Assembly: GCA_049287525.1 (NCBI GenBank)
Contig: JBAQFZ010000059.1
Coordinates: 3,045 to 67,044, forward strand
Reading direction: 5' to 3'
Length of the DNA stretch: 64,000 nt
Origin: Halobacteriota archaeon
GTDB lineage: Archaea > Halobacteriota > Syntropharchaeia > Alkanophagales > Methanospirareceae
A model generated the notes under the pieces. The model had not been told where the DNA came from. It was given only the letters and a program-made list of their open reading frames with translations, and ran no database searches. Shown one piece after another: positions 4,433 through 57,524 of the stretch (position 1 is the stretch's first letter; each line of letters opens with the position of its first letter). A program made the position numbers and the translations under genes.

Positions 4433-4441
4433 AATTAGCTC

Positions 4442-36452: not shown

Positions 36453-36453
36453 T

Positions 36454-37668: not shown

Positions 37669-37758
37669 CTTATCAGGATTTGCTTTTAATAATAAAAAAA
37701 TAAAAACCCCGTAAAGGGGCTTACTCTTACTTATATAGTTCTATTTTTTTAGGTTTTT

Positions 37759-39096
37759 TTAACTGCTGTGTTTTCCCGTCAGTCTAATGCACCCGGTATA
37801 GTCGCCCTCCGGTGTATCGGTTGGCACGTGTAGCGAGAACTCTATCGGTGTGGGCACGCATCCTGGCAGACTCACGTTAAATAATACACCCGGTGGCAAT
37901 GCAAGCCACTGTTCAATCACGTTTATCTTGGCATCCAGTTTATCTGCGGGTATAACTCCACCCCCTGTTGAAGTCATGTTCCATGATTCTATAACAATGT
38001 CCATCGGGTCGTTACCATTGTTCTTCACATTGCCAGGGGTTACCCATTTCGTTTCGTTCCGAGTGACATTGCCATAATCCACCTCTGAGAAGTCTATCGC
38101 AAGCGCTATTATTGACAGATACTCGAATGTGTTTGCCATGCAGTCGAATAAACCTCCGTGGTCGAATACCTGAGCGCAGACGGTGTAGTTTCCCGCAGGG
38201 TCAGAGCAGTTGAAGTTGTTGTGCTCGACGTATATCCAGCCGGTGCCATTATCGAGATATTTCATGATGTCCGCCTTCTCATCCGCTGTGAGTAGTCCGT
38301 AGGTACGATATGCAGCCTCCACAGCATCATCGCATGCAGTCCGGTTGTCCAATGCCGTTGCCACGGATTCCTCTTTCAGCACGCAATCGCCAGGTTCACA
38401 ACAGTTTGATTCGTTGCACGGGGTGCAATTGCAAGCACTGCCATCACCGAGCGGCTTGAACGTTCTGACAACCACATTGCTAATGTCGTCCTTGCCGTCT
38501 GGGTCGCAAACAACGACATACTTGTCCACGGTTACGTTCTCACCCGGGATTGGATATACATTCGTATACCCATCACCCGGCGTATCATCTGGTGTCTCCC
38601 ATTTATACTGTACATTTGGCTCCTTGGGTATCACAATGACACTTGCATACGTGGGCACTCCGGGATTGACAGTGGTCTTGAGGTTGTGGTATGTGCTATT
38701 CTCTACAAGCAGACCCATGTAGTAAGCATTTCCAGTCACATTATGGTAGTAGTCACCAGGTGTAGCACTGGCGGGCACTCCTATGCCTAGTATAGAGTAT
38801 CTCGTTTCGTTGGCAGGTAAGTCAAACCCCACCGGGTTAAACGAATATGTCCATCCGGTTTGTTCTGGTTCGATGGTGAAATTCACATACTCGGTTTCCG
38901 TCGTTATGCTTTCAACACTCACGTTGTATGTTGCGGTTCCCCCCGGGCATACTTCATCTCCTATCGGTGTGACATCCATTGTAAACCCAGGGTGGCCTAA
39001 CTTGGCAGAGGATGCTCCTACAAGCACTGCCAATACCATAGACGCTACAAATACCGTCTTTAATATTGTTCTTTTTTCCATTTTTACTTTTTTCAC
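37759..39096 (-). CDS. secreted cysteine-rich cell-surface protein, paralogue of 35028..36452
   Basis: Signal peptide and the same conserved blocks as the 35028 protein (VVRTFkP, ALDNRTACDDAVEAAY, GTGWIYVE, ESWNMTS, IPADKLDAKI, FSLHVP). Confidence 0.6.
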   Translation of the reverse strand: MKKVKMEKRTILKTVFVASMVLAVLVGASSAKLGHPGFTMDVTPIGDEVCPGGTATYNVSVESITTETEYVNFTIEPEQTGWTYSFNPVGFDLPANETRYSILGIGVPASATPGDYYHNVTGNAYYMGLLVENSTYHNLKTTVNPGVPTYASVIVIPKEPNVQYKWETPDDTPGDGYTNVYPIPGENVTVDKYVVVCDPDGKDDISNVVVRTFKPLGDGSACNCTPCNESNCCEPGDCVLKEESVATALDNRTACDDAVEAAYRTYGLLTADEKADIMKYLDNGTGWIYVEHNNFNCSDPAGNYTVCAQVFDHGGLFDCMANTFEYLSIIALAIDFSEVDYGNVTRNETKWVTPGNVKNNGNDPMDIVIESWNMTSTGGGVIPADKLDAKINVIEQWLALPPGVLFNVSLPGCVPTPIEFSLHVPTDTPEGDYTGCIRLTGKHSS

Positions 39097-39236
39097 CTCC
39101 TATTTACCTTTTTCCCTTCCTAACCTTCTCCTTCACTTCCTTACCTTTCTTTCTCTTATTTTTTTAAAAAAAAAAATAAGCCAGCGTATGTATTGCTTGC
39201 TCCATTTTTTATTTTTTGTTTTGGTCGTTCTTGCTT

Positions 39237-42077
39237 TTACTTTATTTCGAGGAAGCCTGTATCAAACACTGTTGGTGTCCACAGCGTTGATTCTACTACT
39301 ACCCGGAATGCTTTCTTGCCCGCTGGAACTCCAGTTGGTACGTCTGCTCTGAGTGGTATCAGTACCTCACCACCTGCGGGTATCGCAACTTCTTTCGACG
39401 TCCAGTTGAACCATGCCAGATCGGCTTTCCAATCGTTTGGTATAGACTCGTTGGTCAGACTAACGAGGAATACATCGTCAAAGTTCTCGGTGTTCACGAT
39501 TTTTATACTGAGATTCACACTGCTGTTCACGGTGTTGAATCTTGGTGTAACCGCTGTACCGATTCCGCCTTTTGGTATGATTGACTCGAACACGTTCTCT
39601 AAGCAGTTGTTCTCTTCGTCACTCTCATTTACCTCGTCCTGGTTATCTGCACACACCACTATGGTATCGTTCGTGCCTGACATCGTGAACGGACCCACGG
39701 TGTTCGTGTAGCATTTACCAGCAGCAAGTGCCGGTACTGCATCCTCCATCACATCTACTCCGTCTATCGTGATGGTCGTGTTGCTCACGCCTGCATCTGC
39801 TTCTCCTTTGTTGCAGACCGTGTACGTGATGTTGTAGGTCTTATCCTCCGGACTTACCCATTCCTCGTACTTTGCCCGGATTACCAGGTCTGGCTTTCCT
39901 GGCGTGTTTATCCACGCATCGTCCCAGTCCATAAACCATTTTCCGTCATATTTGCCCTTTGCATACTGAACATTACGGTCAGCGCCACAGTCAACCACAC
40001 GCGCATCCGCTTCAATAACTATTGTATCATTTATTGTACCATTTCGTGTAAGTACAAAACGTGGGCAGTATTCGTTTACACTCCACTCACGGCTGACAAC
40101 GAGGTCTATGGTTACTTCTTCCACGTGGTATTCCGTTGCTTCGCCTGTCCTATTGTTACTTAAGACGATGAGGTCACACTCGCTGAGTATTCCATATCCA
40201 GGTTCTTCAGGGTTCTGGGTGTCTGTCCAGTTCACCAGCTCGTAGCTGTCCTTACAGCAGCAGACCTCTTCCCATTGCGTTTCCCACGGATTACTGAGGT
40301 CTATCTCCTGATGATCCCGTTCTGAATCGAAGTATAGCATGACACCATCCGGCTCCGTACTCGTTAATTTGAGCGTATAAGGCAGCAATTCCACATGGTA
40401 CCATGTCTTTCCATAGTATTCTGTTATGAACGTCCAATCCATGTTTGGATATGAAGTGCCGTCTCTCCATCCCTGACCGCGTGGGTAGAGCTCATATTTG
40501 TCCCAATAGAACCAGTGATAATCGCCATCCGTAGTAAGTTCAATGTAATATGTTTCATTTGGTATTAATTCAACTGGTGTTATGAAATGGAACTGCACCC
40601 ATACGGGCGTGTTCTTGTCTCCGAGCGCACCTAATTGCAACGTCGAACTTCCAATAGGAATCCTATTGGAATTATAGATTGCAACTGTTACGTTTCCCTG
40701 TTCGCCCCATAATGCGACACGTACTGCATCGAGTGTTGACACTGTTGGCACAAAGCTCTGGTAATCTTTTAGCGGCTCATTCTGAAGTGCATCTGAGGTA
40801 ACCGATTTTACCTGCCACTGGTCTACCACTTTCTCGCCTTCCATGTCTATCTGATCGCAGTGGCTGAGTTTACCATCGCCGTTTGTGTCTTCCCAACTAC
40901 TCAGGTGGTATTTCTTATCGGGCTCAGGACATAGCTCATTGAATCCGTTGCTGATTGGCGCATACGGGTCCCACGAGAGGTTCGCGGGATGTAATATCTT
41001 CGGCTTGAATGGGTAAGGTGGTACCAGCGTATCATCTATGGGGACATTTCCTATTTCCATTTTGATGGTCATATTGCCTGCAAATTCTAAGCTGCAGGAT
41101 GCCAAGTCCCAGAATCTTATATTCGTCAGGTTAACATCGCCGGTGTTCTGTACTTCGCATTTGAATTTATAGATGTCGCCAATCCCGGCACCGTATATCT
41201 CGTCTACCCATTCTTCGTTTACAGGGTCCCACACGGTCTTGTTTACTTCTATACCCGGCTCGTGGCAGGGTGGACATTCGAATTCGTTCTCTAAGCAGTT
41301 GTTCTCCTCTACTTCCTCGTCTACTACATTATCGTAGTCCGCGCAAACCAACACCGTTACATTCCTACCGCAAGGGCACTCGAACGTGCCAACGGTGGAC
41401 GTGTAGTTCTCGCCTGCTGCCAGTGGCGGTACAGGGTCTTCTACCACTCCGTTAGCAGCCGGGAAGCCAGCTACCGCGATGGACGTGTTGCTCGCGCCGG
41501 CATCGCCTGCTCCTTTGTTTGCTACCGTGTAGGTTACCATTATGGTATCATTCACCAATGTCTCGTACTTATCGGTGATTACTAGGTCTGGCTTCTCATT
41601 GTCTCTACAACTGAATGTGCCGTCATGCCATATTGCCGGTGGGTTGCCATAAGATTGATTCCCCAGTTTACAACTTTCATTGAGGTCCAGCAGAGTTGTG
41701 CAGTAGCCCTCGTTTTCGCAATGGATTGTAATAGTCGCGAGCTTTAAACGCTCTCCTGTTATATCGCTTACGGAAGGAGATGCTCCGATTATATGCGTTG
41801 CGCCCTTGTCGTATTTCACAAGGAACATCGAAGGGAAATCCCCAGGTGCTGCTTTTGTAATATTCGCGCAACAGGGGTCGTATTCGATCCAGATGTCGAA
41901 ACCAACTACACCCTCAGTTGCATTCAGTAGTATATCCACATCTGTTGTATTGCAATACTCAGCAGAGCTGTTCTCTGGTTCGAACCATACCGTGTTTGGT
42001 GGCAGTGCTGCTACCACGGAAGCTGACATTGCAAATAATAATGTTACTATTCCAAGCACTACTATTTTGTTATTCAT
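39237..42077 (-). CDS. giant secreted surface protein (946 aa): N-terminal cohesin-like domain, 2x CARDB repeats, C-terminal domain shared with the 35028 protein
   Basis: Signal peptide. Two CARDB-like repeats (PDLVITDKYE...VANKGAGDAGASNTSIAV...EENNCLENEF and PDLVIRAKYE...CNKGEADAGVSNTTITI...EENNCLENVF). The C-terminal RFNTVNSSVNLSIKIVNTENFDDVFLVSLTN...WKADLAWFNWTS is homologous to the C-terminus of the 35028 protein. Confidence 0.7.
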   Translation of the reverse strand: MNNKIVVLGIVTLLFAMSASVVAALPPNTVWFEPENSSAEYCNTTDVDILLNATEGVVGFDIWIEYDPCCANITKAAPGDFPSMFLVKYDKGATHIIGASPSVSDITGERLKLATITIHCENEGYCTTLLDLNESCKLGNQSYGNPPAIWHDGTFSCRDNEKPDLVITDKYETLVNDTIMVTYTVANKGAGDAGASNTSIAVAGFPAANGVVEDPVPPLAAGENYTSTVGTFECPCGRNVTVLVCADYDNVVDEEVEENNCLENEFECPPCHEPGIEVNKTVWDPVNEEWVDEIYGAGIGDIYKFKCEVQNTGDVNLTNIRFWDLASCSLEFAGNMTIKMEIGNVPIDDTLVPPYPFKPKILHPANLSWDPYAPISNGFNELCPEPDKKYHLSSWEDTNGDGKLSHCDQIDMEGEKVVDQWQVKSVTSDALQNEPLKDYQSFVPTVSTLDAVRVALWGEQGNVTVAIYNSNRIPIGSSTLQLGALGDKNTPVWVQFHFITPVELIPNETYYIELTTDGDYHWFYWDKYELYPRGQGWRDGTSYPNMDWTFITEYYGKTWYHVELLPYTLKLTSTEPDGVMLYFDSERDHQEIDLSNPWETQWEEVCCCKDSYELVNWTDTQNPEEPGYGILSECDLIVLSNNRTGEATEYHVEEVTIDLVVSREWSVNEYCPRFVLTRNGTINDTIVIEADARVVDCGADRNVQYAKGKYDGKWFMDWDDAWINTPGKPDLVIRAKYEEWVSPEDKTYNITYTVCNKGEADAGVSNTTITIDGVDVMEDAVPALAAGKCYTNTVGPFTMSGTNDTIVVCADNQDEVNESDEENNCLENVFESIIPKGGIGTAVTPRFNTVNSSVNLSIKIVNTENFDDVFLVSLTNESIPNDWKADLAWFNWTSKEVAIPAGGEVLIPLRADVPTGVPAGKKAFRVVVESTLWTPTVFDTGFLEIK

Positions 42078-42113
42078 TTTTTATCTTTTCACCTCCTAAT
42101 TTTTTATATTCGT

Positions 42114-42196
42114 GCACTTACCACGGTACCATGCTGCAAAGCAGTAGGTAAATCCCCATGCATCTCGGACCGTTTAAACCGTGGTTTCTTACTTCT
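42114..42196 (-). ncRNA. conserved ~83-nt 5' leader element (copy 1) between the promoter and the GGAGGTGA Shine-Dalgarno of gene 39237..42077
   Basis: gcacttaccacggtaccatgctgcaaagcagtaggtaaatccccatgcatctcggaccgtttaaaccgtggtttcttacttc is about 90% identical to 47403-47486. Internal complementarity: ccacgg/ccgtgg and tgcaaagca. Confidence 0.45.
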
Positions 42197-42257
42197 TCCT
42201 GTCCATATCCTCTCTTTTTTCATCTTTTCCCTCCTTCCTATTTTTATAAAAAATAAT

Positions 42258-42277
42258 AAGCGGCAGTTTGCCGCTTA
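42258..42277 (-). terminator. GC hairpin directly after the stop of the dockerin gene 42280..43296
   Basis: aagcggc agtttg gccgctt; on the minus strand it is followed by a T-rich tract (reverse complement of aaaaataataa). Confidence 0.5.
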
Positions 42278-42279
42278 TT

Positions 42280-43296
42280 CTATTTTTCCCTGCAACAACA
42301 GCAGTCCAATGCTTCTCCATACATGTAGTGACGAGCGATTTTTATCGCATCGCCCAGGAAGTCTATATTTCCACTGCAATCCACGTCTCCTGCCCACCTG
42401 CATTTTATGGGGTCGCCGTACATGTAGTGCCGTGCCACACCTATCGCATCGCCCAAAAAGTCCACGTTCCCGTTCATGTTCACGTCACCACACTTCCATG
42501 TATTGGTCAGGCAGTTGTTTGTTTCGTTGCTTTCGTCCACGGTATTATTGAAATCAGCACATACCGTTATGTTATCGCTTAGTGGTGTGTATGTCCATAC
42601 ATAGTTGAAACAACCGATATGACTATCGCCTGGTGCCAGAACTACTGGTACTGGGTCGTATTCCACTTCGAGACCGTCAACATACAACATCGTGTTATGC
42701 CCCGCAGAAGCTGTTCCATTACCCGTATTCGTTACGTTATAGCATATCGTGCAGTTATCAGTCCATGTATCAGTGACCTCCAGGTCTGGTCTTTCCCCGC
42801 ATGAGAATGTGCCGTTTTTCCATTCTACATCGAGTGGTAAGGCAGGTGGTGGTGATAGCAATGAACTACCCTCAATGAATCTCAAAGGAGTGGTGCAGAA
42901 ACTCGTACTGTTGCAGCAGTGAATCGTTAGAGTTCCAATTTGGAAAGTCCCATTTTTCGGACTCAGGGTCATGAACGCTATCCACTCTCTGCCATCAACG
43001 CTTCTATCCCACGTCGAATTTTGGGGTGGTAGCCAATTAGTAGTGTTAATTTCCCAAGTTGTTACATTTGCACACCCTGGATCATAAGAGAGGTATATCG
43101 TGCCACCTGCACAACCACGTTCGTCAGTTACATTAGCCCACACCTCTACCTCTGCAGTATTGCAATAAGGTGCATTGCTGTCCTCTGGTTTAAGCCATAC
43201 CAAGTTCTCTGCGGGCTGAGCGGAAGCTGCCGTTATCCAAACCATTGCAAATAACGCAGCTATTCCAAGGAATACTATTTCATTTTTGTGTTTCAT
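42280..43296 (-). CDS. secreted adaptor protein: N-terminal cohesin-like domain, CARDB-like domain, C-terminal type-I dockerin, ends CCCCREK
   Basis: Signal peptide. The N-domain is homologous to the N-domain of the 39237 protein (VW..PE.S.A.YCNT...YDP.CANVT). The dockerin has two Ca-binding repeats GDVNMNGNVDFLGDAIGVARHYMYG / GDVDCSGNIDFLGDAIKIARHYMYG. Confidence 0.68.
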   Translation of the reverse strand: MKHKNEIVFLGIAALFAMVWITAASAQPAENLVWLKPEDSNAPYCNTAEVEVWANVTDERGCAGGTIYLSYDPGCANVTTWEINTTNWLPPQNSTWDRSVDGREWIAFMTLSPKNGTFQIGTLTIHCCNSTSFCTTPLRFIEGSSLLSPPPALPLDVEWKNGTFSCGERPDLEVTDTWTDNCTICYNVTNTGNGTASAGHNTMLYVDGLEVEYDPVPVVLAPGDSHIGCFNYVWTYTPLSDNITVCADFNNTVDESNETNNCLTNTWKCGDVNMNGNVDFLGDAIGVARHYMYGDPIKCRWAGDVDCSGNIDFLGDAIKIARHYMYGEALDCCCCREK

Positions 43297-43539
43297 CTTT
43301 TCTTCTTTCGCCCCTAGATTTTTTACTCTTTCCTTAAAAAATTCTGATAAAGATGTTCTATTTAAAAGCTTTTCGGATAAATTTCTACTGAAACATTGCT
43401 CAAATCAAGCAAAATTAATAATTGATGTTAAGATAGCCCAAAAAATCTGACCGAAATCTCTATTTTTTCTCTCAGCCTATGCTTCTTATTCATCCCTTTT
43501 CTTTTCGCCTTCCCCCATCTTTTTATAAATAAAATGAAT

Positions 43540-43556
43540 AGCGGCATTCAGCCGCT
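43540..43556 (-). terminator. hairpin overlapping the stop codon of gene 43548..46061
   Basis: agcggc attca gccgct. The same sequence is present at 47538-47558. Confidence 0.45.
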
Positions 43557-46061
43557 TATCTTACAGCAACATTTCAGGTCATACTGACCCGGATAGCCGA
43601 CGTAGTATAGCAGGTCTATCACGTCCGACATGTCTATCCGCTTATCGCAGTTCACATCCGCTGCCCATTCATTACAAAATCGGTATTGACCGGGGTAACC
43701 CACATAATATAGCAAGTCTATTACATCCGGCATGTCCACTACTTCATTGCAGTTTACGTCACCGCATTTCCATGTCTCGGTCAGGCAGTTATTGGTCTCG
43801 TTGCTCTCTGCCATAGTATTATTGGAGTCGGCGCATACCGTTATGATGTCGCCTGGTGGCGTGTATGCCCATGTGTAGTTGAAACATCCAAGGTAACTCG
43901 CATTTGGTGCCAAATTCACGGGTACAGAATCATATACCTTTTCAACACCGTCCACAAACAGCATTGTATTATGCCCTGCTGGTGCTGGTGCCGTTCCATT
44001 TCCGACGTTCGTCACGTTATAGCAAATAGTGCAGTTTTCTTGCCACGTATCCGTGATTTTAAGGTCTGGCTTCTCTTCTGGATATTTAACGGTTAACGTT
44101 ACAGTCACTGCATAAGGGTCCTCATCCGGATCATTAGAACTTATATTTAACCAGCCATGATATTCACCTGGAGAAAGACCGGTACAATTAACGCATACGT
44201 TCACCAGTTTTGAGCCACCCGGGGAAACCGTGAATGTTCTTGGATTGGCATCAAGCCAGCCTGAACCTGATTGATAATGAATTCCGATGTCATCCACCAC
44301 CAAACTACCGTTTCCCGCGTTGGAAACCGTGAATGTCTTGCAATTTACTCCTGCAGTAAGATTTGCATAATAAACAAAATTCTCTATTGCGCATTCGCCA
44401 TAACCAACCTTGAAATAGCCATCACCGTTCCAGCCAGAGCCCCAACTGTTTTTTACAATCCAGTAGTCACCTGTTTCATCGTAACCCGCTATTACAACTG
44501 CGTGATTCACATCGTTATCATCGGTGCATCTGTAAACCCCATTTACATCGAAATACCCGCCAAATTCTGAGCCTATGCCCATAGCAACAGAGAGCGGACC
44601 TTTTTCTATCAAACTATCTTTAATTGTTTCTATATCGCTTGGCACACTCCCGGTCTCGTCTATTTTCTTTAGCCTATCGCTCCAATCGGGACATCTATAT
44701 CTATCAGAACAAGGGCAATTTCGTGCAATATACGGGAAGCAAGCCTCGTCAGTTATTCCTTCGTCCCTTATAAATTCAAGTGCTGTTGAATGCCATCCCC
44801 CATTGCAATCTCCACAAACTATGCAGCAATCCGATACTAAATACTGCTCTGAAAGGTCGAAATCCAACTCCGGATTGTCATACAAGATATTGTATTCAGG
44901 TTCTACTATGCCTACGCCAGAAAAAGCCCAGCAACTGCCACAACTGCCTTGATCCTTAACCGGGGTCATCCAATCGCCTCCGTCTTTATTCCTCCAGTCG
45001 AAGTGGTTCGGGAGGCTTATCTCCTTTTCTTTAATTTCTTTCTTATTAAAGTCCGTATCGCCAACACTCTTATTCTTATTTTTGCCAAGTTTTATCTTTC
45101 CCACCTTACACTTCTCGCTTAAATTCAGTAGCTCCGAAACAGTTTTGCGGGTGCCATCAGGCAGCACACAGGTAGTAGAGTTCGTAGCAAAGCAGTCCTT
45201 CTTTCCTTTTGATGCTATAAGCCAACCCTTTTTAGCACAATAGGAAAACTCTCTCCCACACTCACCACGATAAAAAGCCCAGGCATCGCATTCCGCTTTG
45301 TCGGGCATCACACAGATGCCTCGCTCTCCTTTTTCTCCCTTTTCTATTTTGTATTCGTAGCCCATATCCATGCAGTAAACGGCAGCGGGATTTTTGATGC
45401 CTATAACTTCTCCTTCTGCTTTAGTACTGCCACTCTGAGTGCAGTTAAATTCTGACCCTTTCAAGGTTGTTATATCTGCATTAAGGCTACATGCCTCCTC
45501 ACAGCATTCGAAGTCCAGATGTTCTGGTGTTACGTTAATATCTGGCTCGCCACTGAGCCTGACCGTATTATTGCAGCACTTTGTCGGTAGTTCATCGCAG
45601 TCGCCAGGCACCACTTTAGAGCAGAACTTGTAGTCGCCTATTTCCCATCCCCCGGGAACAGGTGCGTATAACGTAACGGTCCACGTTATATAATATCCAC
45701 CGGGAAGCCAGTCAGATGTCGAATCCGTCCATATTAGGGTACCATCCGGAGCATATTCGTAGAAGTAGATGGTATAATAGCTGCCATCACCATAGTTTGC
45801 AAATTGTGAGTAATCTATGAAGTCGTCATAAGGTTCGTAGCAGGGATACTCTGACCAAACACCGTCGCCATACCATCTGAAGTCACACCCTCTGGCAATA
45901 GGCACATCGTAGTAGTCTTCAATTGGGGACTCTTGTTTTGAGATACTAATATTCAACTCCTGAAACTCCACAAATGCTCCTGACCCGGAGAGCAATGATA
46001 GTGTTAATATCATTGTCATCACTATCGCTATTACATTTATATTTCCTCTTTTAGTGTCCAC
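43548..46061 (-). CDS. secreted multidomain protein: papain-like (C1A) cysteine peptidase, CARDB-like domain, C-terminal dockerin, ends KCCCKISG
   Basis: C1 peptidase motifs KDQGSCGSCWAFS, NHAVVIAGYD and WIVKNSWGSGWNGDGYF. The CARDB PDLKITDTWQENCTICYNVTNVGNGTAPAPAGHNTMLFV is near-identical to the one in 47555..50014. Dockerin repeats GDVNCNEVVDMPDVIDLLYYVGYPGQY x2. Confidence 0.75.
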   Translation of the reverse strand: MDTKRGNINVIAIVMTMILTLSLLSGSGAFVEFQELNISISKQESPIEDYYDVPIARGCDFRWYGDGVWSEYPCYEPYDDFIDYSQFANYGDGSYYTIYFYEYAPDGTLIWTDSTSDWLPGGYYITWTVTLYAPVPGGWEIGDYKFCSKVVPGDCDELPTKCCNNTVRLSGEPDINVTPEHLDFECCEEACSLNADITTLKGSEFNCTQSGSTKAEGEVIGIKNPAAVYCMDMGYEYKIEKGEKGERGICVMPDKAECDAWAFYRGECGREFSYCAKKGWLIASKGKKDCFATNSTTCVLPDGTRKTVSELLNLSEKCKVGKIKLGKNKNKSVGDTDFNKKEIKEKEISLPNHFDWRNKDGGDWMTPVKDQGSCGSCWAFSGVGIVEPEYNILYDNPELDFDLSEQYLVSDCCIVCGDCNGGWHSTALEFIRDEGITDEACFPYIARNCPCSDRYRCPDWSDRLKKIDETGSVPSDIETIKDSLIEKGPLSVAMGIGSEFGGYFDVNGVYRCTDDNDVNHAVVIAGYDETGDYWIVKNSWGSGWNGDGYFKVGYGECAIENFVYYANLTAGVNCKTFTVSNAGNGSLVVDDIGIHYQSGSGWLDANPRTFTVSPGGSKLVNVCVNCTGLSPGEYHGWLNISSNDPDEDPYAVTVTLTVKYPEEKPDLKITDTWQENCTICYNVTNVGNGTAPAPAGHNTMLFVDGVEKVYDSVPVNLAPNASYLGCFNYTWAYTPPGDIITVCADSNNTMAESNETNNCLTETWKCGDVNCNEVVDMPDVIDLLYYVGYPGQYRFCNEWAADVNCDKRIDMSDVIDLLYYVGYPGQYDLKCCCKISG

Positions 46062-46092
46062 TTTTCTTTTTCACCTCATATTCTTTATTCTT

Positions 46093-46521
46093 TTATTGGT
46101 CTCTCATCACCTTTTCTTTCTTCTCTCCATTCCTTTTCACTACATACAACCGCATTTCAGTTCGTACTGTCCCGGATAGCCGACGTAATACAGCAGGTCT
46201 ATTACATCCGACATGTCCACCGTTCGTCACATGATAGCAAATCGTGCAGTTAGCTGGCCAGCAGACCCATTTATCGGTGATCTCCAGGTCTGGCAGTAAC
46301 ATTGCTACTTCCGTCAACGGATGCCAATCTCCGCCTTGTTGTATACCACCAGACGAATTGTAGGGTAGCATTGTATCACCAAGCCCATCGTCATCTTCAT
46401 CCGTACCGGCATAGTCGCTCCAGTAGTTACCGCCAGACCAGAACCCGCCGACGATGTTTGTTCCCGGGATAGATTTTATTACTGCTGCCCCACTTTTGCG
46501 CATTTTCATAATTTTACCCAT
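46093..46521 (-). pseudogene. decayed duplicate of the beta-helix/dockerin gene 47555..50014 (N-terminus fused to a C-terminal segment, internal deletions, frameshifted end)
   Basis: The first 17 aa, MGKIMKMRKSGAAVIKS, are identical to the start of the 47555 gene. They are then fused to IPGTNIVGGFWSGGNYWSDYAGTDED.DGLGDTMLPYNSSGGIQQGGDWHPLTEVAMLLPDLE, which is residues ~590-650 of that gene. The DNA at 46201-46330 is near-identical to 48014-48130. Confidence 0.7.
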
Positions 46522-46642
46522 TTTTCTTAAAATTAAAAACCATGACGGGGCTTAGGCTCATATATAGTTATCGAATAGGGATATTGCATAATTAAGGCAA
46601 AATTGGACTATGGCAGCAATCTGACCCGAGTTGAGCAAGTGG
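46522..46642 (-). promoter_or_regulatory. duplicated upstream (promoter/5'UTR) segment, near-identical to 50024..50142
   Basis: ggggcttaggct.atatatagttatcgaatagggatattgcataattaaggcaaaa.tggactatggcagcaatctgacccgagttgagcaag occurs in both places. Contains TATA-like atatatagtta. Confidence 0.5.
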
Positions 46643-46751
46643 AGAGATTTCGTGGAAGACATTGGATGAAAATGTGAAAAAGAGGCTTACGAGGAATCCC
46701 GCACTCTCAAGTAGGGAAAAAAAAGGAAAAAGGTAGATGGATGTCTAACAC

Positions 46752-47339
46752 CTACTTCTCCATCCACATTTCGGCATACTTGAATTCAACCAGCGAACCG
46801 TAGTCGCTGACTCCAGGATCATAGTCCCCTATAAACCCTGTGGCAGTAGCCTCTCTGAACTTTGAATTTTCACTGTACTTGCTCATAAAGTCACCGGATT
46901 TTGACATCATTTTGAACATGCCTTTTTCCAAATCACCCCCACCGGTCCACTGAGCTTGGATGGCTACTGTCTGCACAGTCCCATCAGACACGAACAACTC
47001 TATATCCACAGGAGAGAGAGTTGCAGTGCTCAGTTGTTTATCTACGTCAAAAACATCCTCGGTAGTGAACTTATAACCCCACTTATCCTCCGACAGCCAC
47101 TCTCCCAGCTCAGAGTCGTACCAATACTTGTAAATACTCAAGTACATATCGGTCCCATCGTCGGTCTCCGTCAGCGACAGGAAGGTATAAGTATACAGCT
47201 CAGGCGATTCCTCTACCCAATCCGCATAGGCTGAAACACCCTTTTCTCGATTGATTGTCTTTGATTCCAACGCTACCACCGCTTCACACATGCTCAATGC
47301 AATAACTAACGCTAGCAGGATTGCCGCTATTTTATTCAT
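46752..47339 (-). CDS. secreted hypothetical protein (signal peptide)
   Basis: MNKIAAILLALVIALSMCEAVVA signal; 195 aa; preceded by a GGAGGTGA RBS and leader-element copy 2. Confidence 0.5.
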   Translation of the reverse strand: MNKIAAILLALVIALSMCEAVVALESKTINREKGVSAYADWVEESPELYTYTFLSLTETDDGTDMYLSIYKYWYDSELGEWLSEDKWGYKFTTEDVFDVDKQLSTATLSPVDIELFVSDGTVQTVAIQAQWTGGGDLEKGMFKMMSKSGDFMSKYSENSKFREATATGFIGDYDPGVSDYGSLVEFKYAEMWMEK

Positions 47340-47402
47340 TTTTATTTCTTTTCACCTCCTATTATTTTGGGTATTTATAAAGCACCCCTCCTCGGCGCTG
47401 AT

Positions 47403-47486
47403 GCACTTACCACGGTACCATGTTGCAAAGCAGCAGGTACATCCCCGTGCATCTCGGACATTTTAAACCGTGGTTTCTTACTTCCT
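47403..47486 (-). ncRNA. conserved ~83-nt 5' leader element (copy 2) upstream of gene 46752..47339
   Basis: gcacttaccacggtaccatgttgcaaagcagcaggtacatccccgtgcatctcggacattttaaaccgtggtttcttacttcc. See 42114-42196. Confidence 0.45.
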
Positions 47487-47554
47487 TTTCTCATCTCCAT
47501 TCTTTTTCTTCAGTCTCTACTCGCCTATTTTCATAAAAAAATAATGGGCGGCAT

Positions 47555-50014
47555 TCAGCCGCTTATTTCTATGCAACAGCATTTCAGTTCATACTGCCCA
47601 GGATAGCCGACGTAATACAGCAAGTCTATCACGTCCGACATGTCTATGCTGCTCTTGTCGCAGTTCACATCCGCTACCCACTCGTTACAAATTGTATATT
47701 GCCCCAGATAACCCACATAATATAGCAGGTCTATTACATCCGACATGTCCACTACTTCATTGCAGTTTACGTCACCGCATTTCCATGTCTCGGTCAGGCA
47801 GTTGTTGGTCTCGTTGCTCTCTTCTATCGTATTAGTGGAGTCGGCACATACCGTTATGATGTCGCCTGGTGGCGTGTATGCCCATGTGTAGTTGAAACAT
47901 CCGGTGTAGCTCGCATTTGGTGCCAAATTCACGGGTACAGAATCGTATACCTTTTCAACACCGTCTACAAACAGCGTTGTATTATGCCCTGCTGGTGCCG
48001 TACCATCTCCGACGTTCGTCACATGATAGCAAATCGTGCAGTTAGCTGGCCAGCAGACCCATATCCCGATTAGCTCCAGGTCTGGCAGTAACATTGCTAC
48101 TTCCGTCAACGGATGCCAATCTCCGCCTTGTTGTATACCACCAGACGAATTGTAGGGTAGCATTGTATCACCAAGCCCATCGCCATCTTCATCCGTACCG
48201 GCATAGTCGCTCCAGTAGTTACCGCCAGACCAGAACCCGCCGACGATGTTTGTTCCCGGAATAGGTGTGATATTCCATACGTTGGTTCCAGCATCATCAT
48301 CATCATAAGCGTTGTTCGTGTTGTCGAAGTAGTTATTGTAGATCGTATTGCCATTGGACAATATTAGAGTGATACCGATGCCGTTAGTGGTTACATTATT
48401 ACCCGTTATCGTAACGTTATCAGAATTATTCAGCCTGATACCACCCGCATTATTGGCAATCCGGTTCTCGCTGATATTGACACCATCCGGGCTGTTATCC
48501 AGATCAGATAAATTGCTCTTCGATGGCTGCATTCCTGACTCATAATCCTCACTTAGCAGCGCAAGTGCAGTAGGCGGCGCAGCATAATCAGCACTTACGA
48601 TTGGCTGCTGCAAAGCGCCACCATCTGCTACTGTGGCACCTGCAAAACCAGGCATCATACCAGAACCTGAACCAGAACCAGAGACGTAATCAAGCAGAAT
48701 GGCGTAGTCACTGTTGTTAACGATAGTATTGTTGTGAATCGAAGCATTGGTGAATGAGTAGAGTTTGATGCCGTAAGCATAACTAAAAGCCGCGTTGGCC
48801 GCGATGTAGTTATCTGAGACAATGGCACCCGAACTTTCTTTCAGATAAACACCGTATCCAAGATAGTCCCCAACTCCATTGTCTACCAGGGTATTTCCTG
48901 TAATCGTCAGATTCGCAGGAGCCGCCGCAGTATAAAAAAGCGTACTTAATATCCCATGATATATGTTATGCGATGCAGTGTTATTACAAATCGTGATGTT
49001 CTCGGTTGGCGAGTCCCCCAGAAAAATGCCGTGATACCCATTATTGTTCGCCGTGTTATTGTAAATCAAAGCGTCACTGCTCTTGTATATAACAATCCCG
49101 TGTACATCATTCTCCGATGCCGTGTTATTGATAACCGTATTGTTATAAGCCGTGTCATGGATATACACCCCATACATATTGTGCCTTGCCGTGTTGTTGG
49201 TTATTGTTGCGTTACGGGACGTCCAAGATAAAATGCCGGTCCCCGTATCTTGAGTAAGATTGAAATTATAGGAGACTTCATTACTGTCAATCAGGCAGTT
49301 ATCCGAAGAATACAGACGTATACCTTCCCAGTCATTATAATTGGCAGTATTGCGTATCAGCTTGTTATTATCTGATTCATAAAGATAGATCCCCATATGC
49401 CATTCGTTCGAGTTCGCGGTGTTGTTCGTGAGCGTATTGTTATCGCTTGAAGCCCACAAGTAGATGCCGTACTGTTTGTTCGCGCTTGCGTTGTTGTTGG
49501 CAATAGTGTTGTTAAATGAGTTGTACAAATAGATACCGCAATTGTTCGAGTTTACTGTGTTGTCCGTGATGCAGCAAGTATTAACGCCGCTAAGGTAGAT
49601 TCCCGCCTTAGCATAACTCGTTGCTCCTATCAACGTGAATCCTGAGATGTTCACCCGGTTTTGGTTCACCTCAACGACATGATCGCTTGCGTCGTTCGCT
49701 TGCACAATCACTACATCCCTGTTCTCGCCTTGCAACGTCAGCGACTTGTTCACGATTACGTTATCAAGGTAACTGCCGTTGTACACGTAAATCAAGTCGC
49801 CCACAGTCGCGTTATTTATTGCCGATTGTATCGGTGTTGAACTCGCATTGAACTGCGCCGGGGCAATCCACCACCCGCTTGTGTTCACATAAATTGCGGT
49901 TGCCGACGCAGTGCCCACGCTACCAAACGTCAATACGATAAACAGGAATAGCACAAGCACAACAGATTTTATTACTGCTGCCCCGCTTTTGCGCATTTTC
50001 ATAATTTTACCCAT
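47555..50014 (-). CDS. secreted right-handed parallel beta-helix (PbH1/NosD-like) protein, CARDB-like domain, C-terminal dockerin, ends KCCCIEISG
   Basis: Many PbH1 repeats (NTVNSNNCGIYLYNSFNNTIANNNASANKQYGIYLWASSDNNTLTNNTANSNEWHMGIYL...). NosD-like C-terminal GGNYWSDYAGTDEDGDGLGDTMLPY. CARDB and dockerin as in the 43548 protein. Confidence 0.75.
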   Translation of the reverse strand: MGKIMKMRKSGAAVIKSVVLVLFLFIVLTFGSVGTASATAIYVNTSGWWIAPAQFNASSTPIQSAINNATVGDLIYVYNGSYLDNVIVNKSLTLQGENRDVVIVQANDASDHVVEVNQNRVNISGFTLIGATSYAKAGIYLSGVNTCCITDNTVNSNNCGIYLYNSFNNTIANNNASANKQYGIYLWASSDNNTLTNNTANSNEWHMGIYLYESDNNKLIRNTANYNDWEGIRLYSSDNCLIDSNEVSYNFNLTQDTGTGILSWTSRNATITNNTARHNMYGVYIHDTAYNNTVINNTASENDVHGIVIYKSSDALIYNNTANNNGYHGIFLGDSPTENITICNNTASHNIYHGILSTLFYTAAAPANLTITGNTLVDNGVGDYLGYGVYLKESSGAIVSDNYIAANAAFSYAYGIKLYSFTNASIHNNTIVNNSDYAILLDYVSGSGSGSGMMPGFAGATVADGGALQQPIVSADYAAPPTALALLSEDYESGMQPSKSNLSDLDNSPDGVNISENRIANNAGGIRLNNSDNVTITGNNVTTNGIGITLILSNGNTIYNNYFDNTNNAYDDDDAGTNVWNITPIPGTNIVGGFWSGGNYWSDYAGTDEDGDGLGDTMLPYNSSGGIQQGGDWHPLTEVAMLLPDLELIGIWVCWPANCTICYHVTNVGDGTAPAGHNTTLFVDGVEKVYDSVPVNLAPNASYTGCFNYTWAYTPPGDIITVCADSTNTIEESNETNNCLTETWKCGDVNCNEVVDMSDVIDLLYYVGYLGQYTICNEWVADVNCDKSSIDMSDVIDLLYYVGYPGQYELKCCCIEISG

Positions 50015-50639
50015 TTTTCTTAAAATTAAAAATCTTGATGGGGCTTAGGCTTATATATAGTTATCGAATAGGGATATTGCATAATTAAGGCAAAAATGGA
50101 CTATGGCAGCAATCTGACCCGAGTTGAGCAAGAAAAGAGAGCCAATAGGAGATGTTCCGATAATAGTTCCAGGTTTACAACTTTTATGTCCAGATTGTAT
50201 TGGAGACGATTGATAGTTTATTGATACAATCCTTCTTTTCATGAAATTAAAGCGGGAGCATGTTCTATAATACTATCTAAAGGAGAAGGAAAAGGAAAAG
50301 GGTGGATATTATGGGACCGATATAGCAATACTTGCTAAAGAACCGGAAGTAAGATGGTATTCCATCAAAAAGAGGTTGAAAGAATGGCTATTGCGTCCTC
50401 CGCCAGTTTTGACAGGATATTCACACTCTCAGACCATCCGATCAAAGAGGATAATAAAAGCCAGGATGGAACTTTTAAGACCTGAACAGCAAGGCATGTA
50501 CCGCCTACACATCATCATCCACATGTTTAGATTCTGCTCTTATGCGTTATTGGCATTAACAAGTCCCTTATTTACGGGATTTTTGAATAGTAAGTTTTAT
50601 ATAGGTGTAGGGGGTATCCATCCTACATAGCAATCAAAA

Positions 50640-51416
50640 GATACAAAGCGAGGCAATCGTGTATACTTGGAAGAGTACAAATCCATAAGGCAAGGAAAAA
50701 AGGTTATTAGCAAATTCATACGCTACATCGGTCCCGAGGACAAACTATCAACGAGTGAAAAAAACGCGCAATCCCGGGAAATTGCTGTCCATCAGGGTGA
50801 TCAACAGAGTCATCGACCCTGAGAGTGTCACCCAAATGGAACGCTGGGTGCCCACTACGGATCTTCCTTATCTGGCTGGGATTTCAGCTAAGGAAATCAC
50901 AAAAGATGCGGTTCTTTCAGCACTCGATTTTGTATGCGTGGATGACCACGGCAGTGGACGTGTCGCTGATCTGAGCGCTGAACTGGGATACAACCCCAAA
51001 AGGATCCGGCGTCGCCAAGTGAACCTCGCAGTGCTGGTATCAAAGCATGATAAACATCCCATCGCGCATTTTGTCTACAATGGAAGCCGTCACAGCATAA
51101 TAACCGTGAAGAATCTCCTCGCTCGCTTGAGCATCGGGTAAGGGCGTATCTGTTCGTGTGCATGCTGGCATATTGGCTATTATCTGTGCTTCAGTGGAAG
51201 TTGAAAGAAGCTTCGGGCAAAGAGGATTCGTGGGAACGTGCAGATACGCTGTTGCAAGACCTTGCCAGAGTAGAACGGGTGGAGGTCACGTTTGGTAATG
51301 AAATAAAGACGTGGTACCTCAATGTGACGAAGGAGATAACGGATACTCTGAAGGAAATCGGCTTGATAGATTTACTTAAAGAGGAAACACACCTCTCTGA
51401 TTGCCTAGAAATGTAG
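50640..51416 (+). mobile_element. frameshifted/truncated transposase remnant (possibly IS1634/IS4-superfamily)
   Basis: Several short ORFs in different frames: ..IVYTWKSTNPIRQGKKVISKFIRYIGPEDK.. (an N-terminus of the kind seen in IS1634-like transposases), MKKTRNPGKLLSIRVINRVIDPE...YNPKRIRRRQVNLAVL, and MLAYWLLSVLQWKLKE.... It lies at the boundary of the duplicated segment. Confidence 0.3.
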
Positions 51417-51441
51417 GGGGTACATCTTCGCTAAGCAGGTA

Positions 51442-52128
51442 TTAAAACTTTCCAGACACAGGATTCCTTGGCGGAGCATCCCCTACTACAAATTTCACTT
51501 CATAATACTTCAACTGGATATTGTCATTAACAGAAACCGCATAATCAAGCCCTTCGTCAAATTCGTTCACAATTATAATTCCTCTGACGCTCTCACCGTT
51601 CTTCGCTAAATTCCGGTTAATCCAGCCCATATATCGTTGAATCTGACCTACTACTTTATCGCTTTCTTTTCCCTTTTTTGTTTCAACCACGACAAAATCT
51701 CTATTCCTATCACTGCACAGAAGGTCTATGCGACCAACAGTCTTTGTATCGTATTCCTTTTCCTTCAGTTCAAGACCCTTTTCTATCTGCGATGGGTCGC
51801 TTGCCAGATAGTTTATCAAATCTTTTTCTAAACTCACAGAATAAGGTGGAATCTCTACAGCCTCTTCTTCATCCTCAAACTCTTCTGCTAAGGCATAATA
51901 GCCTTTTTCAAGTCCTTCGGTAGATAAAATCCCTTCTTTTTTGAGTTTGTTTAGATACGAAGTAAGTCCTGATGGTGTTCTATACCCTTTTTTGACGTGT
52001 TCGGGTTGGCTGCTTCTTATAAAATCGATGATTGCGTCTCTATGTGCTGTGTGCTCTTTCTTTTCGTTTCTCAGATAGTACACAATCAAATCTCTTACAC
52101 GCATCTTCTCTAAATCAAGCATTTCCAT
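51442..52128 (-). CDS. wHTH + PD-(D/E)xK nuclease domain protein (NucS/DUF91-like C-terminus)
   Basis: C-terminal GRIDLLCSDRNRDFVVVETKKGKESDKVVGQIQRYMGWI matches the D..ExK nuclease core. Confidence 0.5.
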   Translation of the reverse strand: MEMLDLEKMRVRDLIVYYLRNEKKEHTAHRDAIIDFIRSSQPEHVKKGYRTPSGLTSYLNKLKKEGILSTEGLEKGYYALAEEFEDEEEAVEIPPYSVSLEKDLINYLASDPSQIEKGLELKEKEYDTKTVGRIDLLCSDRNRDFVVVETKKGKESDKVVGQIQRYMGWINRNLAKNGESVRGIIIVNEFDEGLDYAVSVNDNIQLKYYEVKFVVGDAPPRNPVSGKF

Positions 52129-52208
52129 CTTCTGCCCTCCTTTTTTCTCCTTTCCCCAGCGCCGCTGCGAAACACACTTTAAATCTCATCAACATTTTTT
52201 AACACTTC

Positions 52209-52583
52209 TTATGATGCCTTTATTTTTGGCGCTTCGACAAACAAACCAAGTGTACCTCTAATTTCAAGCCCAAGTGCCTTTGCAGCATTTCTGCCTCTTT
52301 TTTCGTCAATCAATATTCTAGCACCGGAGTGCAGTGCCAGAGCAATTGCCTCCGCTTCTCCTTCATCAACCACAAGCATGAGTGCCTTCACCAATTCGGT
52401 GTTTTTCACTTCAGTAGCCTTAATCCAAGGATTATTTCGGAATAGAATAGACCCTTCAGTTTTTCTCCGTAACTCTCTCGCGACAGCCTCAGGGGCCAAA
52501 ACTTCTTCATGCACCTCTTTAAGAATAAAAAGTAACCTCGATTTAAACAACACCACTAAGGGACCGGTATCAGAAACGATCAT
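52209..52583 (-). CDS. PIN-domain protein (DUF3368-like) type II toxin candidate
   Basis: Starts MIVSDTGPLVVL; 124 aa; 4-nt overlap with the upstream UPF0175-like gene. Confidence 0.6.
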   Translation of the reverse strand: MIVSDTGPLVVLFKSRLLFILKEVHEEVLAPEAVARELRRKTEGSILFRNNPWIKATEVKNTELVKALMLVVDEGEAEAIALALHSGARILIDEKRGRNAAKALGLEIRGTLGLFVEAPKIKAS

Positions 52584-52855
52584 ATTTTGCCAAGTTCCTC
52601 TTGTAAGTCCTCCACGGTGATGTTTGTGTAGCTGATCTTCCTTTTTCCTAACTCGTAGAGAAAATCCCAGAGAGTTAACTTTGCAGTATCCGCAGCTTGT
52701 TTCAATGTCATCTTCCCCTCTCGGTAAAGCTCCACAGCTAAAGCTATTCTCGCCTCGTGATATTTCTTCTGGAGTTCGAGCATGTTATCCGCCAAAGCTA
52801 CGAGTTTATCGTGCTTTGCTACCTCCTCATGATTGGAGAAGTCATTGAAGGGCAC
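52580..52855 (-). CDS. UPF0175-family antitoxin candidate (start may be the internal Met at ~52783)
   Basis: ALAVELYREGKMTLKQAADTAKLTLWDFLYELGKRKISY matches UPF0175, which is known to pair with DUF3368 PIN proteins. Confidence 0.55.
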   Translation of the reverse strand: MPFNDFSNHEEVAKHDKLVALADNMLELQKKYHEARIALAVELYREGKMTLKQAADTAKLTLWDFLYELGKRKISYTNITVEDLQEELGKI

Positions 52856-56564: not shown

Positions 56565-57524
56565 ATGTATTATTTTGGGATTAAAAAGATGAGAAAAAGG
56601 GGAAAAATGGGAAGGAGTGTTTTAGCAGGTGGCATAGTTATCTGCATCGTAGCGGCTTTTATCAGCTCTTTGGCAATTCTAGTTCCGGCATTGGCTGCAT
56701 TGCAAGCAGAAGACACTGTGAAGGTCACCGTGAATGCACCTGAGTATGTAAACGGGACTTTTAATGCGAGCATAGATGTGGATAATATTACGGATTTCAA
56801 CTCAGGGCAATTCGACCTTTCCTTTAATTCAAGCGTGGTGAACGTAACTGGCGTAGGGGATGGTGAAATAGCGGGAGAAACGGTGCCGATATTCATGTGG
56901 GATTTCGTTAACGCAGACAAGGTGCGGGTGCTTGTCAGTATGCCAATGGGAGTAGGTTTAAATGGCTCAGGGCACTTAGCAGAAGTGGAGTTCGGGGTAA
57001 GAGGAGAAGAGGGAGATAGAAGCAAGCTGGACATTTCTGGTGGGCTGCTCGTGGATACCGAAGCGAAGGAGATAGAAGTGGAATGGTATCACGATGAAGT
57101 AACAGTTAAAATTAAAGCAGTTGTGTTTGATACGGGTGAAGGAACGTATCCAAGCATCTTTGGAACGCATGAAGGAACAATTACACCTGCTAAAGATATT
57201 TCCGTGCATAAGATGTACACATACCCATGCACAGGGACGGGTGGGCATTCTGAATATGTAAGGATTTGGAATGCCACATTGGATATGGATATAAGTGCTA
57301 CCTGGAAGGGCTATACCGGAAATTACCACAACATCGTTTTCCACGAACCATTCACACTATCCGCAGGAGAAACTTACAACTACACCATTAGAACAGGTTC
57401 TTATCCGCTGGTCCATCACACTGAAGAATTAGAATTAGACGGGGGAATGATGAGGTGCACAAAATTCACAGACGCAAATGGTCGCACTTTTAACGATTGG
57501 ATTCTGGCGATGAAACTCTGGTAA
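56565..57524 (+). CDS. secreted cohesin-domain protein with conserved C-terminal domain (paralogue of 22084..22986)
   Basis: Signal peptide. Cohesin VKVTVNAPEYVNGTFNASIDVDNITDFNSGQFDLSFNSSVVNVTGV...LAEVEFGV. The C-domain is shared with the 22084 protein. Confidence 0.68.
   Translation: MYYFGIKKMRKRGKMGRSVLAGGIVICIVAAFISSLAILVPALAALQAEDTVKVTVNAPEYVNGTFNASIDVDNITDFNSGQFDLSFNSSVVNVTGVGDGEIAGETVPIFMWDFVNADKVRVLVSMPMGVGLNGSGHLAEVEFGVRGEEGDRSKLDISGGLLVDTEAKEIEVEWYHDEVTVKIKAVVFDTGEGTYPSIFGTHEGTITPAKDISVHKMYTYPCTGTGGHSEYVRIWNATLDMDISATWKGYTGNYHNIVFHEPFTLSAGETYNYTIRTGSYPLVHHTEELELDGGMMRCTKFTDANGRTFNDWILAMKLW

Follow-up and report, generated by a model that had tools for sequence, protein, structure and literature searches.

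A secreted CARDB-dockerin module with conserved cysteines at both ends of the dockerin, and a possible covalent clasp, in a Methanophagales (ANME-1) relative

What is the role of a run of cysteines at the very end of a dockerin? The question is raised by three secreted proteins encoded on the minus strand of a 64,000-nucleotide (nt) stretch of DNA (contig JBAQFZ010000059.1, positions 3,045 to 67,044, of assembly GCA_049287525.1), hereafter the window. The host is a relative of the Methanophagales, the ANME-1 group of anaerobic methanotrophic (methane-oxidising) archaea. GatE encoded in the window is 100% identical to a protein from a metagenome-assembled genome listed by NCBI as Halobacteriota archaeon, and its next relatives, at 75-80% identity, belong to Methanophagales, Methanophagaceae and Methanospirareceae; look-ups by exact sequence gave no record for GatE or for one of the three proteins (338 residues). 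In each of the three proteins a CARDB domain is followed by two calcium-loop/helix repeats and then by a cysteine run. The explanation of the whole that we favour, as probable although well short of certain, is a cohesin-dockerin display system in which the cysteine tail is one half of a covalent intramolecular clasp. The three genes, whose open reading frames (ORFs) were all confirmed, and their parts are the following (aa, amino acids).

42280-43296, minus strand: gene for a 338-aa adaptor-like protein
43219-43296, minus strand: signal peptide of the 338-aa protein
42793-43218, minus strand: cohesin of the 338-aa protein
42493-42792, minus strand: CARDB of the 338-aa protein
42304-42492, minus strand: dockerin of the 338-aa protein, subtype B, with 13-residue loops
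42283-42303, minus strand: cysteine tail of the 338-aa protein, CCCCREK
43548-46061, minus strand: gene for an 837-aa secreted papain-like protease, with a GTG start
45972-46061, minus strand: signal peptide of the 837-aa protein
45261-45401, minus strand: DUF333 of the 837-aa protein
44364-45014, minus strand: Peptidase_C1 of the 837-aa protein
44136-44345, minus strand: Ig/BACON-like domain of the 837-aa protein
43767-44072, minus strand: CARDB of the 837-aa protein
43572-43766, minus strand: dockerin of the 837-aa protein, subtype A
43551-43571, minus strand: tail of the 837-aa protein, CCCKISG
47555-50014, minus strand: gene for an 819-aa secreted NosD-like right-handed beta-helix protein
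49898-50014, minus strand: signal peptide of the 819-aa protein
48107-49897, minus strand: beta-helix of the 819-aa protein
47780-48088, minus strand: CARDB of the 819-aa protein
47582-47779, minus strand: dockerin of the 819-aa protein, subtype A
47558-47581, minus strand: tail of the 819-aa protein, CCCIEISG

A preliminary description of this DNA had placed CARDB-dockerin-cysteine ends on these three genes, behind unrelated N-terminal parts. Both statements hold: the coordinates, the CARDB matches and the loop repeats check out, and the N-terminal parts are Peptidase_C1, NosD/Beta_helix and cohesin. CARDB (PF07705) is matched by Pfam in all three proteins with 46.5-54.8 bits against a cutoff of 22.7 (E 1e-12 to 1e-14; 1.1e-14 for the 338-aa and 5.8e-14 for the 819-aa protein). 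No other stop-to-stop ORF of 50 aa or more in the window has a dockerin loop pair together with CCC near the end. The GTG start of the 837-aa gene is preceded by a ribosome-binding site, GAGGTGA. Its product matches Peptidase_C1 (PF00112) at E 7.5e-50 over profile positions 1-219 of 220, as well as DUF333 and, weakly, a BACON-like Ig domain (Pfam). The catalytic Gln is present along with Cys377, His520 and Asn538, and the motifs are KDQGSCGSCWAFS (QGSCGSCWAFS), VNHAVV (NHAV) and VKNSWG (KNSWG); judged by its sequence, the protein is a papain-type protease with its catalytic residues in place. The 819-aa protein matches NosD (3e-64) and Beta_helix (5e-49) in Pfam.

The repeats were not recognised as dockerins by Pfam. 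Dockerin_1 (PF00404) lies under the gathering threshold in all three proteins; the best case is the 837-aa protein (E 0.028, 15.1 bits against 22.9), and the 338-aa and 819-aa proteins give no Dockerin_1 match at all. Close homologues do pass (P0049, 1.1e-8; P0050, 1.1e-10). A family profile from an alignment of 24 sequences (A3) matches dozens of solved dockerins at E values from 1e-16 to 1e-7 across profile positions 3-58 of 70. For the protease dockerin AlphaFold2 gives a model with a predicted local distance difference test (pLDDT) score of 91.7, in which the tail cysteines too are placed with confidence. Foldseek returns only dockerins for this model, with template-modelling (TM) scores of about 0.7 and root-mean-square deviations of 1.5-2 Å, the type I dockerin 4FL4 coming first.

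The calcium ligands (Asp or Asn) at loop positions 1, 3, 5, 9 and 12 are intact. The loops of the 837-aa dockerin, DVNCNEVVDMPD and DVNCDKRIDMSD, agree fully with the 12-residue two-repeat pattern. In the 819-aa dockerin one residue is inserted in the second calcium loop (DVNCDKSSIDMSD versus DVNCDKSIDMSD in relatives), which might weaken that site. The 338-aa dockerin belongs to the other subtype (B), in which both loops have 13 residues (DVNMNGNVDFLGD). Aligned to the family profile, subtype B gives an hhalign probability of 99.3% (E 3.5e-20) and, by this profile comparison, is clearly homologous to the rest of the family. Taken together, the profiles and the AlphaFold2 and Foldseek results confirm ordinary two-repeat calcium-type dockerins as the predicted fold at the ends of the three proteins. 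The preliminary description had foreseen that missing calcium-binding positions or the lack of a dockerin fold would speak against its reading; the ligands and the predicted fold are both there.

What is conserved around the cysteines can be read from 47 homologues with a C-terminal dockerin. All 47 have a cysteine, here Cys(-1), in the C-G-D that starts the first repeat. At least one cysteine is found within the last 16 residues in 46/47 and at least two in 44/47. The triplet CCC, which the preliminary description had singled out as a motif, occurs in 15/47 only and is ruled out as a conserved motif; conserved instead are Cys(-1) and at least one cysteine, usually two, past the last helix. 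That description had also named the absence of the tail from orthologues as a test; a cysteine tail is kept in nearly every homologue and the triplet itself in a minority. Ends in the genome copies include CCCKVL, CCCLE, LNCRGD, LNCTC, LNCKGG, LNCSCSS and similar forms. Dockerins with one, two or three repeats behave alike, with the C-G-D cysteine at the first repeat only and the tail behind the last repeat only. The pattern holds in homologues down to about 31-50% identity and with many different recognition helices. The CARDB-dockerin-cysteine module was found at 11 genome loci, all in ANME-1-type (Methanophagales) metagenome-assembled genomes (MAGs). ANME-2c relatives and a Methanosarcinales cohesin-dockerin protein have neither cysteine.

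The residues behind the last cysteine, 0 to 13 of them among the 47 homologues, have another source. In the three proteins they are 3-5 polar residues with no Pfam match to PGF-CTERM, and they are disordered in the AlphaFold2 model (pLDDT <50). Each gene ends at or close to a terminator-like hairpin:

43541-43555, minus strand: terminator-like hairpin GCGGC-TGAAT-GCCGC followed by a T-run, at the end of the protease gene
about 47548-47562, minus strand: the same hairpin at the end of the 47555-50014 gene
about 42260-42274, minus strand: the same hairpin, ATAAGCGGC, just past the stop codon of the 42280-43296 gene

The pattern common to the three is GCGGC-N5-GCCGC and a T-run. In the protease and beta-helix genes the hairpin takes its 5' arm and loop from AGC GGC TGA (Ser, Gly, stop). 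A signal function of the peptide ISG is ruled out, since it is the translated 5' arm. Because the trailing residues are translated hairpin and are disordered in the model, the protein effectively ends at its cysteine cluster.

The position of that cluster recalls a known feature of dockerins. An intramolecular clasp joins the residue or residues just before the first Gly (G0) to a residue past the last helix (Slutzki et al. 2013, PMC3821032). Examples are Trp(-1)-Pro75 in ScaA of R. flavefaciens and Met(-1)-Pro64 in a C. thermocellum type I dockerin (PDB 4FL4), and breaking the clasp destabilises the calcium-bound fold and lowers cohesin binding about tenfold (PMC3821032). In the proteins described here a cysteine stands at -1 and the first tail cysteine at G0+64 (protease), +62 (adaptor) and +65 (beta-helix protein), and 4FL4 is the best structural match; the equivalence to its Pro64 holds to about two residues only, because linker lengths differ. 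The clasps described so far are non-covalent (stacking, hydrophobic or ionic), whereas here both candidate partners are cysteines, usually with surplus cysteines besides, which would imply a covalent or metal-mediated clasp.

The two cysteines also go together in other lineages. Parsing the best 150 representatives of a search of 1.8 billion proteins gave 743 dockerin modules; this representative library mostly returned multi-dockerin proteins and few close relatives. Both Cys(-1) and a C-terminal cysteine are present in 58 modules, Cys(-1) only in 11, the C-terminal cysteine only in 108 and neither in 566 (odds ratio 27.6). In 36/58 of the modules with both there are no other cysteines, as in tandem arrays of the form xCGD…GPAPKC. 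A disulfide between Cys(-1) and the tail is judged the most likely role because the positions match the known clasp and the pair co-occurs across lineages. The papain domain retains its structural Cys22 (in the SCGSC motif), which suggests that disulfides form outside this cell.

The mechanism that we propose runs as follows. The three proteins would be exported by their N-terminal signal peptides and are probably N-glycosylated. Each would end in a rigid unit made of CARDB, an Ig-like spacer, and the dockerin, a two-repeat calcium-binding F-hand module that would dock its cargo non-covalently on cohesin modules. The cargoes would be the papain-type protease, the NosD-like beta-helix and a cohesin serving as a monovalent adaptor. 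Cys(-1), before Gly-Asp, would pair by a disulfide with the cysteine 62-65 residues past that Gly, tying the dockerin termini and stabilising the calcium-bound fold. Surplus cysteines (loop position 4, the inter-repeat linker, the second and third tail positions) are probably extra staples, by internal symmetry. The analysis shows the domain identities and folds, the conservation, the co-occurrence of the cysteine pair and the swapping of cassettes; we infer the existence of the disulfide, the partners in binding and the biological role, which may be remodelling of the matrix or surface, or adhesion.

Several observations weigh against this reading. ANME-1 archaea live in sulfidic, reducing sediment, where exposed disulfides may not persist. 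The subtype B profile by itself matched no solved structure in a profile search of the PDB, and in one homologue (P0038) the tail begins with Arg where the first cysteine would be expected, followed by two cysteines. The modules in which the two cysteines co-occur come from only 19 proteins, which are mutually related, so the p-value of the co-occurrence overstates independence. In the model of the protease dockerin a beta-bridge joins residue 40 (loop-2 residue 3) to residue 66, which precedes the first tail cysteine; this fits a contact of the tail with loop 2 at least as well as one with the N-terminus. The number of cysteines per dockerin is even in 24 and odd in 23 sequences, so that a preference for even numbers is not borne out, and the commonest state is three (Cys(-1) and C-x-C). 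Since parity is about equal and three is the commonest number, one disulfide cannot cover every cysteine. Cysteines at loop position 4 and in the linker co-occur with odds ratios of 11-12 (confounded by phylogeny), and by the internal two-fold symmetry loop-to-linker and loop-to-tail staples could be formed. The loop-to-tail staple fits the beta-bridge of the model and a foreign family in which a loop-2 C-C is paired with a C-x-C tail. A cysteine-based clasp with surplus cysteines appears, on comparison with the solved dockerins, a plausible variant of a known structural theme; in the literature searched, coverage of which was incomplete, no description of a dockerin disulfide or cysteine clasp was found.

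Other roles of the tail have to be set against the disulfide. The tail cysteines, Cys(-1) and the loop cysteines may bind a metal (Zn, Fe, Ni or Cu) as thiolates, in a site that clasps the termini or has another metal role, with no disulfide. The modal number of three and the roughly 50:50 parity are a better fit to a Cys3 or Cys4 site than to disulfides formed in pairs. C-x-C, CC and CCC are motifs typical of metal binding by thiolates, these archaea live in reducing surroundings rich in metals and sulfide, and the tail is ordered in the AlphaFold2 model. Such a site is nevertheless unlikely in our view, although it deserves to be kept in mind: the modules of other lineages with exactly two cysteines at the same positions could not bind metal with these alone, some ANME-1 relatives have a single tail cysteine (LMCS, LNCRGD, LNCKGG), tail cysteines vary in number (one to four) and spacing, and no conserved His or Asp partner was seen. 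Quite unlikely is the idea that the surplus cysteines (tail positions two to four and loop position 4) are more than extra staples and make up a thiol or metal site with a function of its own, peculiar to the Cys-rich ANME-1 cohesin-dockerin class, for example for redox-switchable or covalent locking. If it were true, assembly would respond, through locking on Cys-rich cohesins or in the sheath, to the consortium's redox or sulfide state. Free tail cysteines might also form intermolecular disulfides that lock the dockerin to a Cys-rich cohesin or cross-link it into a matrix or sheath, and engineered disulfides of this kind reportedly make cohesin-dockerin pairs covalent. Odd cysteine counts are common, the Cys-rich cohesins adjoining the dockerin genes have 7 cysteines each whereas a separate set in the window has none, and single-repeat dockerins with cysteine tails exist that may need pairing. 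Close homologues of these cohesins mostly have an even number, 6, however; the helices that bind cohesin are normally remote from the dockerin termini, as in type I complexes, and no conserved unpaired cysteine was identified on the cohesin or the dockerin side. We consider this very unlikely.

The preliminary description had offered acylation or processing as a role of the tail. Ends such as -CC, -CXC, -CCX and -CCXX do look superficially like Rab or CaaX prenylation motifs, archaea lipid-modify some surface proteins, and an archaeosortase-like sorting signal could be imagined as well. The idea fares badly, and we give it little credence. The distance from the last cysteine to the C-terminus is not fixed, and there is neither a hydrophobic helix nor a basic tail; this variable length and the lack of a hydrophobic segment argue against a sorting or CaaX-type signal. 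The true PGF-CTERM sits on cohesins, and the residues behind the cysteines are translated hairpin. The proteins are exported, having signal peptides, and would be inaccessible to cytosolic prenyltransferases, and the tail varies together with Cys(-1), which stands at the opposite end of the module. Least credible of all is that a recent local duplication is the whole reason for the shared C-terminus and that the tail has no role. The two subtype A cassettes are indeed 88% identical in DNA, terminator included, and a decayed copy lies between them. Yet the cysteine pattern is kept in the distant homologues described above and at no fewer than 11 Methanophagales loci, and the calcium ligands and the dockerin fold are intact.

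The cassettes themselves are mobile among proteins. The subtype A cassettes (43520-44045 and 47528-48052) align over 532 nt, downstream hairpin included, with 87.8% identity and 13 gaps, and reach 92% over the best 300 nt; the preliminary description had called the modules of the 43548 and 47555 genes near-identical in DNA, which overstates the likeness. DNA likeness of the 42280-43296 gene to the other cassettes is confined to about 300 nt of the CARDB part, at about 74%. Between the two subtype A cassettes is a further copy, missed in the preliminary description:

46093-46647, minus strand: decayed deletion derivative of the beta-helix gene

It is composed of a 5' region with signal peptide (46471-46647 versus 49964-50140, 95%), the beta-helix end with the start of CARDB (46212-46472 versus 48004-48264, 96%) and the last dockerin repeat, out of frame (46144-46217 versus 47571-47644, 89%). 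Deletion or frameshift derivatives also occur elsewhere, namely a 210-aa gene in L002, another Methanophagales MAG (1907-2539), and P0009.

In L002 a protease orthologue (2591-5332) is 67% identical through CARDB but has a subtype B, adaptor-type dockerin. It is preceded by a cohesin gene (1907-2539) whose CARDB is fused straight to the end of a dockerin tail (…NCTICY followed by MYGEALNCCCEQEYE). A beta-helix relative with 45% identity (P0159) is without CARDB, and its dockerin, of another type, has three repeats. From one genome to another the cargoes switch their type of dockerin, presumably by recombination that exchanges the cassettes. The shuffling of C-terminal cassettes proposed in the preliminary description is borne out by these exchanges between unrelated or orthologous bodies (L002, P0159 and the 88% cassettes). 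Recognition helices differ sharply among the proteins (VIDLLYYVGYPGQY, AIGVARHYMYG, VRKVFNRYLDP, VGLLWPHVYYP), and those of the two repeats of one protein are nearly identical, as in dockerins with a dual binding mode.

A display system requires cohesins as well as dockerins, and the 338-aa protein supplies one of each. Its N-terminal domain has no match to Pfam Cohesin (PF00963). A profile of this domain (A2), which includes two Pfam-positive cohesins and one sub-threshold match, reaches the cohesin 1G1K at 5e-6, and P0054 (E 6e-14 to the 338-aa query) matches Cohesin at 7e-4, below the Pfam cutoff. The AlphaFold2 model is all-beta with a pLDDT of 91.3, and the top 50 Foldseek matches in the PDB are all cohesins, with TM scores of about 0.8 and up to 0.85. 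The modelled domain has the nine-stranded beta jelly-roll fold of cohesins, like solved cohesins. The model, Foldseek and hhalign agree with the earlier suggestion of an adaptor-like cohesin-dockerin protein. The other cohesin genes of the window, and a gene that overlaps one of them, are these:

39237-42077, minus strand: 946-aa secreted protein with an N-terminal Cys-rich cohesin (41601-42005) and two CARDB domains (3.2e-35)
56565-57524, plus strand: cohesin protein (Pfam Cohesin, 1.3e-5)
57541-58446, plus strand: signal peptide, cohesin (2.6e-10), Thr/Pro-rich linker and PGF-CTERM (5.8e-5), all by Pfam
58443-59810, plus strand: Peripla_BP_2 (4e-26) binding protein with an N-terminal dockerin-like module, overlapping the cohesin gene by 4 nt

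The N-terminal domain of the 946-aa protein aligns with the 338-aa cohesin at 35% identity. This protein has neither a dockerin nor an anchor and is a candidate docking partner. The plus-strand cohesin/dockerin set (56565-59810) is free of cysteine. The dockerin-like module of the Peripla_BP_2 protein (YGNANEDNTIDMRD / DANYDGRISVAD) has Tyr at -1 and aligns by hhalign with 74% probability (E 2.7e-5); the gene arrangement looks as if the binding protein were tethered to the cell by the anchored cohesin. A homologue with 47% identity to the cohesin of the adaptor ends in PGF-CTERM. With PGF-CTERM both on one of the four cohesins in the window and on this homologue, surface anchoring by way of cohesins is directly encoded. 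The locus is a compact set of four cohesins, one of them PGF-CTERM anchored, and four dockerins of three subtypes, with protease and beta-helix cargo.

How much of this is new? ANME-1 genomes hold 112-149 dockerin and 77-80 cohesin domains and are enriched in CARDB, and dockerin plus cohesin proteins and dockerin-tagged substrate-binding proteins have been reported in ANME (Timmers 2017, PMC5244752; Chadwick 2022, PMC9012536). The genes of the window come from the same lineage and have the same domain set as those surveys record. Since these expansions are already published, the cohesin-dockerin system itself is not new for ANME-1. The cellulosome-like display system of the preliminary description stands as far as the secreted cohesin and dockerin proteins go, and its general outline was known. 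In their available sections the ANME surveys are counts of domains and make no mention of Cys(-1) and the tail, of dockerin subtypes or of cassette swapping. The findings at the locus do not overturn current understanding. ANME-1 archaea cannot be grown in pure culture, and it has been proposed that the extracellular space and the contacts with partner bacteria are shaped by their large cohesin/dockerin repertoire. We know of no cohesin-dockerin binding pair for ANME-1.

The 338-aa protein resembles the monovalent adaptor scaffoldin of the ScaC type in R. flavefaciens in having one cohesin and one dockerin, and the ScaC cohesin structure 5LXV is among the Foldseek matches of its cohesin. Its dockerin subtype is unlike that of the neighbouring enzymes, as expected of a specificity-changing adaptor. 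It differs from ScaC in the CARDB spacer between the modules, the archaeal host and a context without polysaccharide degradation. An archaeal, non-cellulolytic cohesin-dockerin pair is known from Archaeoglobus fulgidus, where binding is reported to have been demonstrated experimentally (Bayer 1999; Haimovitz 2008). The A. fulgidus cohesin 2XDH and the model of the 338-aa cohesin have a TM score of 0.69 in Foldseek. That archaeon has few cohesin and dockerin genes, whereas the repertoire here is large and diversified, and to our knowledge no cysteine clasp occurs in its system. Delivery of a protease by a dockerin has parallels in cellulosomes, in an S8 protease of C. thermocellum with a double dockerin (8X39) and a papain-like module of R. 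flavefaciens. The present protein differs in combining C1 with DUF333, CARDB and a single dockerin in an archaeal host. 8X39 is also the top sequence-profile match of the dockerin family (1.7e-16), and a unique clasp has been described for the first of its dockerins. If the disulfide clasp is real, a natural cysteine-clasped dockerin would be a covalent form of the clasp that controls dockerin stability, and could aid the design of robust cohesin-dockerin parts.

The three genes lie within an island of secreted proteins. A run of eight minus-strand genes (35028-50014) all have hydrophobic, signal-peptide-like N-termini. N-x-S/T sequons reach up to 4 per 100 residues in the island against about 0.3 in cytoplasmic proteins; the island genes have 1.2-4.2 per 100 aa, except one that has none, and most other genes of the window 0-1. 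A glycosylation gene is found nearby:

53691-55520, plus strand: AglB/STT3 oligosaccharyltransferase, near the secreted-protein island

The cysteine content of the eight island genes is mostly 2-5.6% and about 0.2-0.5% in two of them. Since these two proteins, like the second cohesin/dockerin set, are poor in cysteine, Cys-richness belongs to particular modules; that it marks the secreted proteins of the organism in general is ruled out by the Cys-poor ones among them.

Some minor features of the window may be added. The island includes four signal-peptide-like genes without a Pfam match (474, 404, 445 and 195 aa; 35028-39096 and 46752-47339, minus strand), of which two are rich in cysteines and sequons and two Cys-poor. 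An 83-nt element, 93% identical between its two copies in the window (42113-42195 and 47402-47484, minus strand), is found once in the leader of the 946-aa gene and once in that of the 195-aa gene. An 8-bp stem may form in it (ACCACGGT/ACCGTGGT); it has no Rfam match, and Rfam gave no match within 39000-51500. Short unannotated ORFs follow just past the island (50755-51416). Beyond them a NucS-like/PDDEXK nuclease gene stands beside a UPF0175 antitoxin-like gene and an adjacent small ORF (51442-52855, minus strand). At 60103-63764 on the plus strand two radical SAM/SPASM proteins come after a squalene-hopene-cyclase-like protein (SQHop_cyclase_C, 7.5e-82), a trio that was not expected on an archaeal contig.

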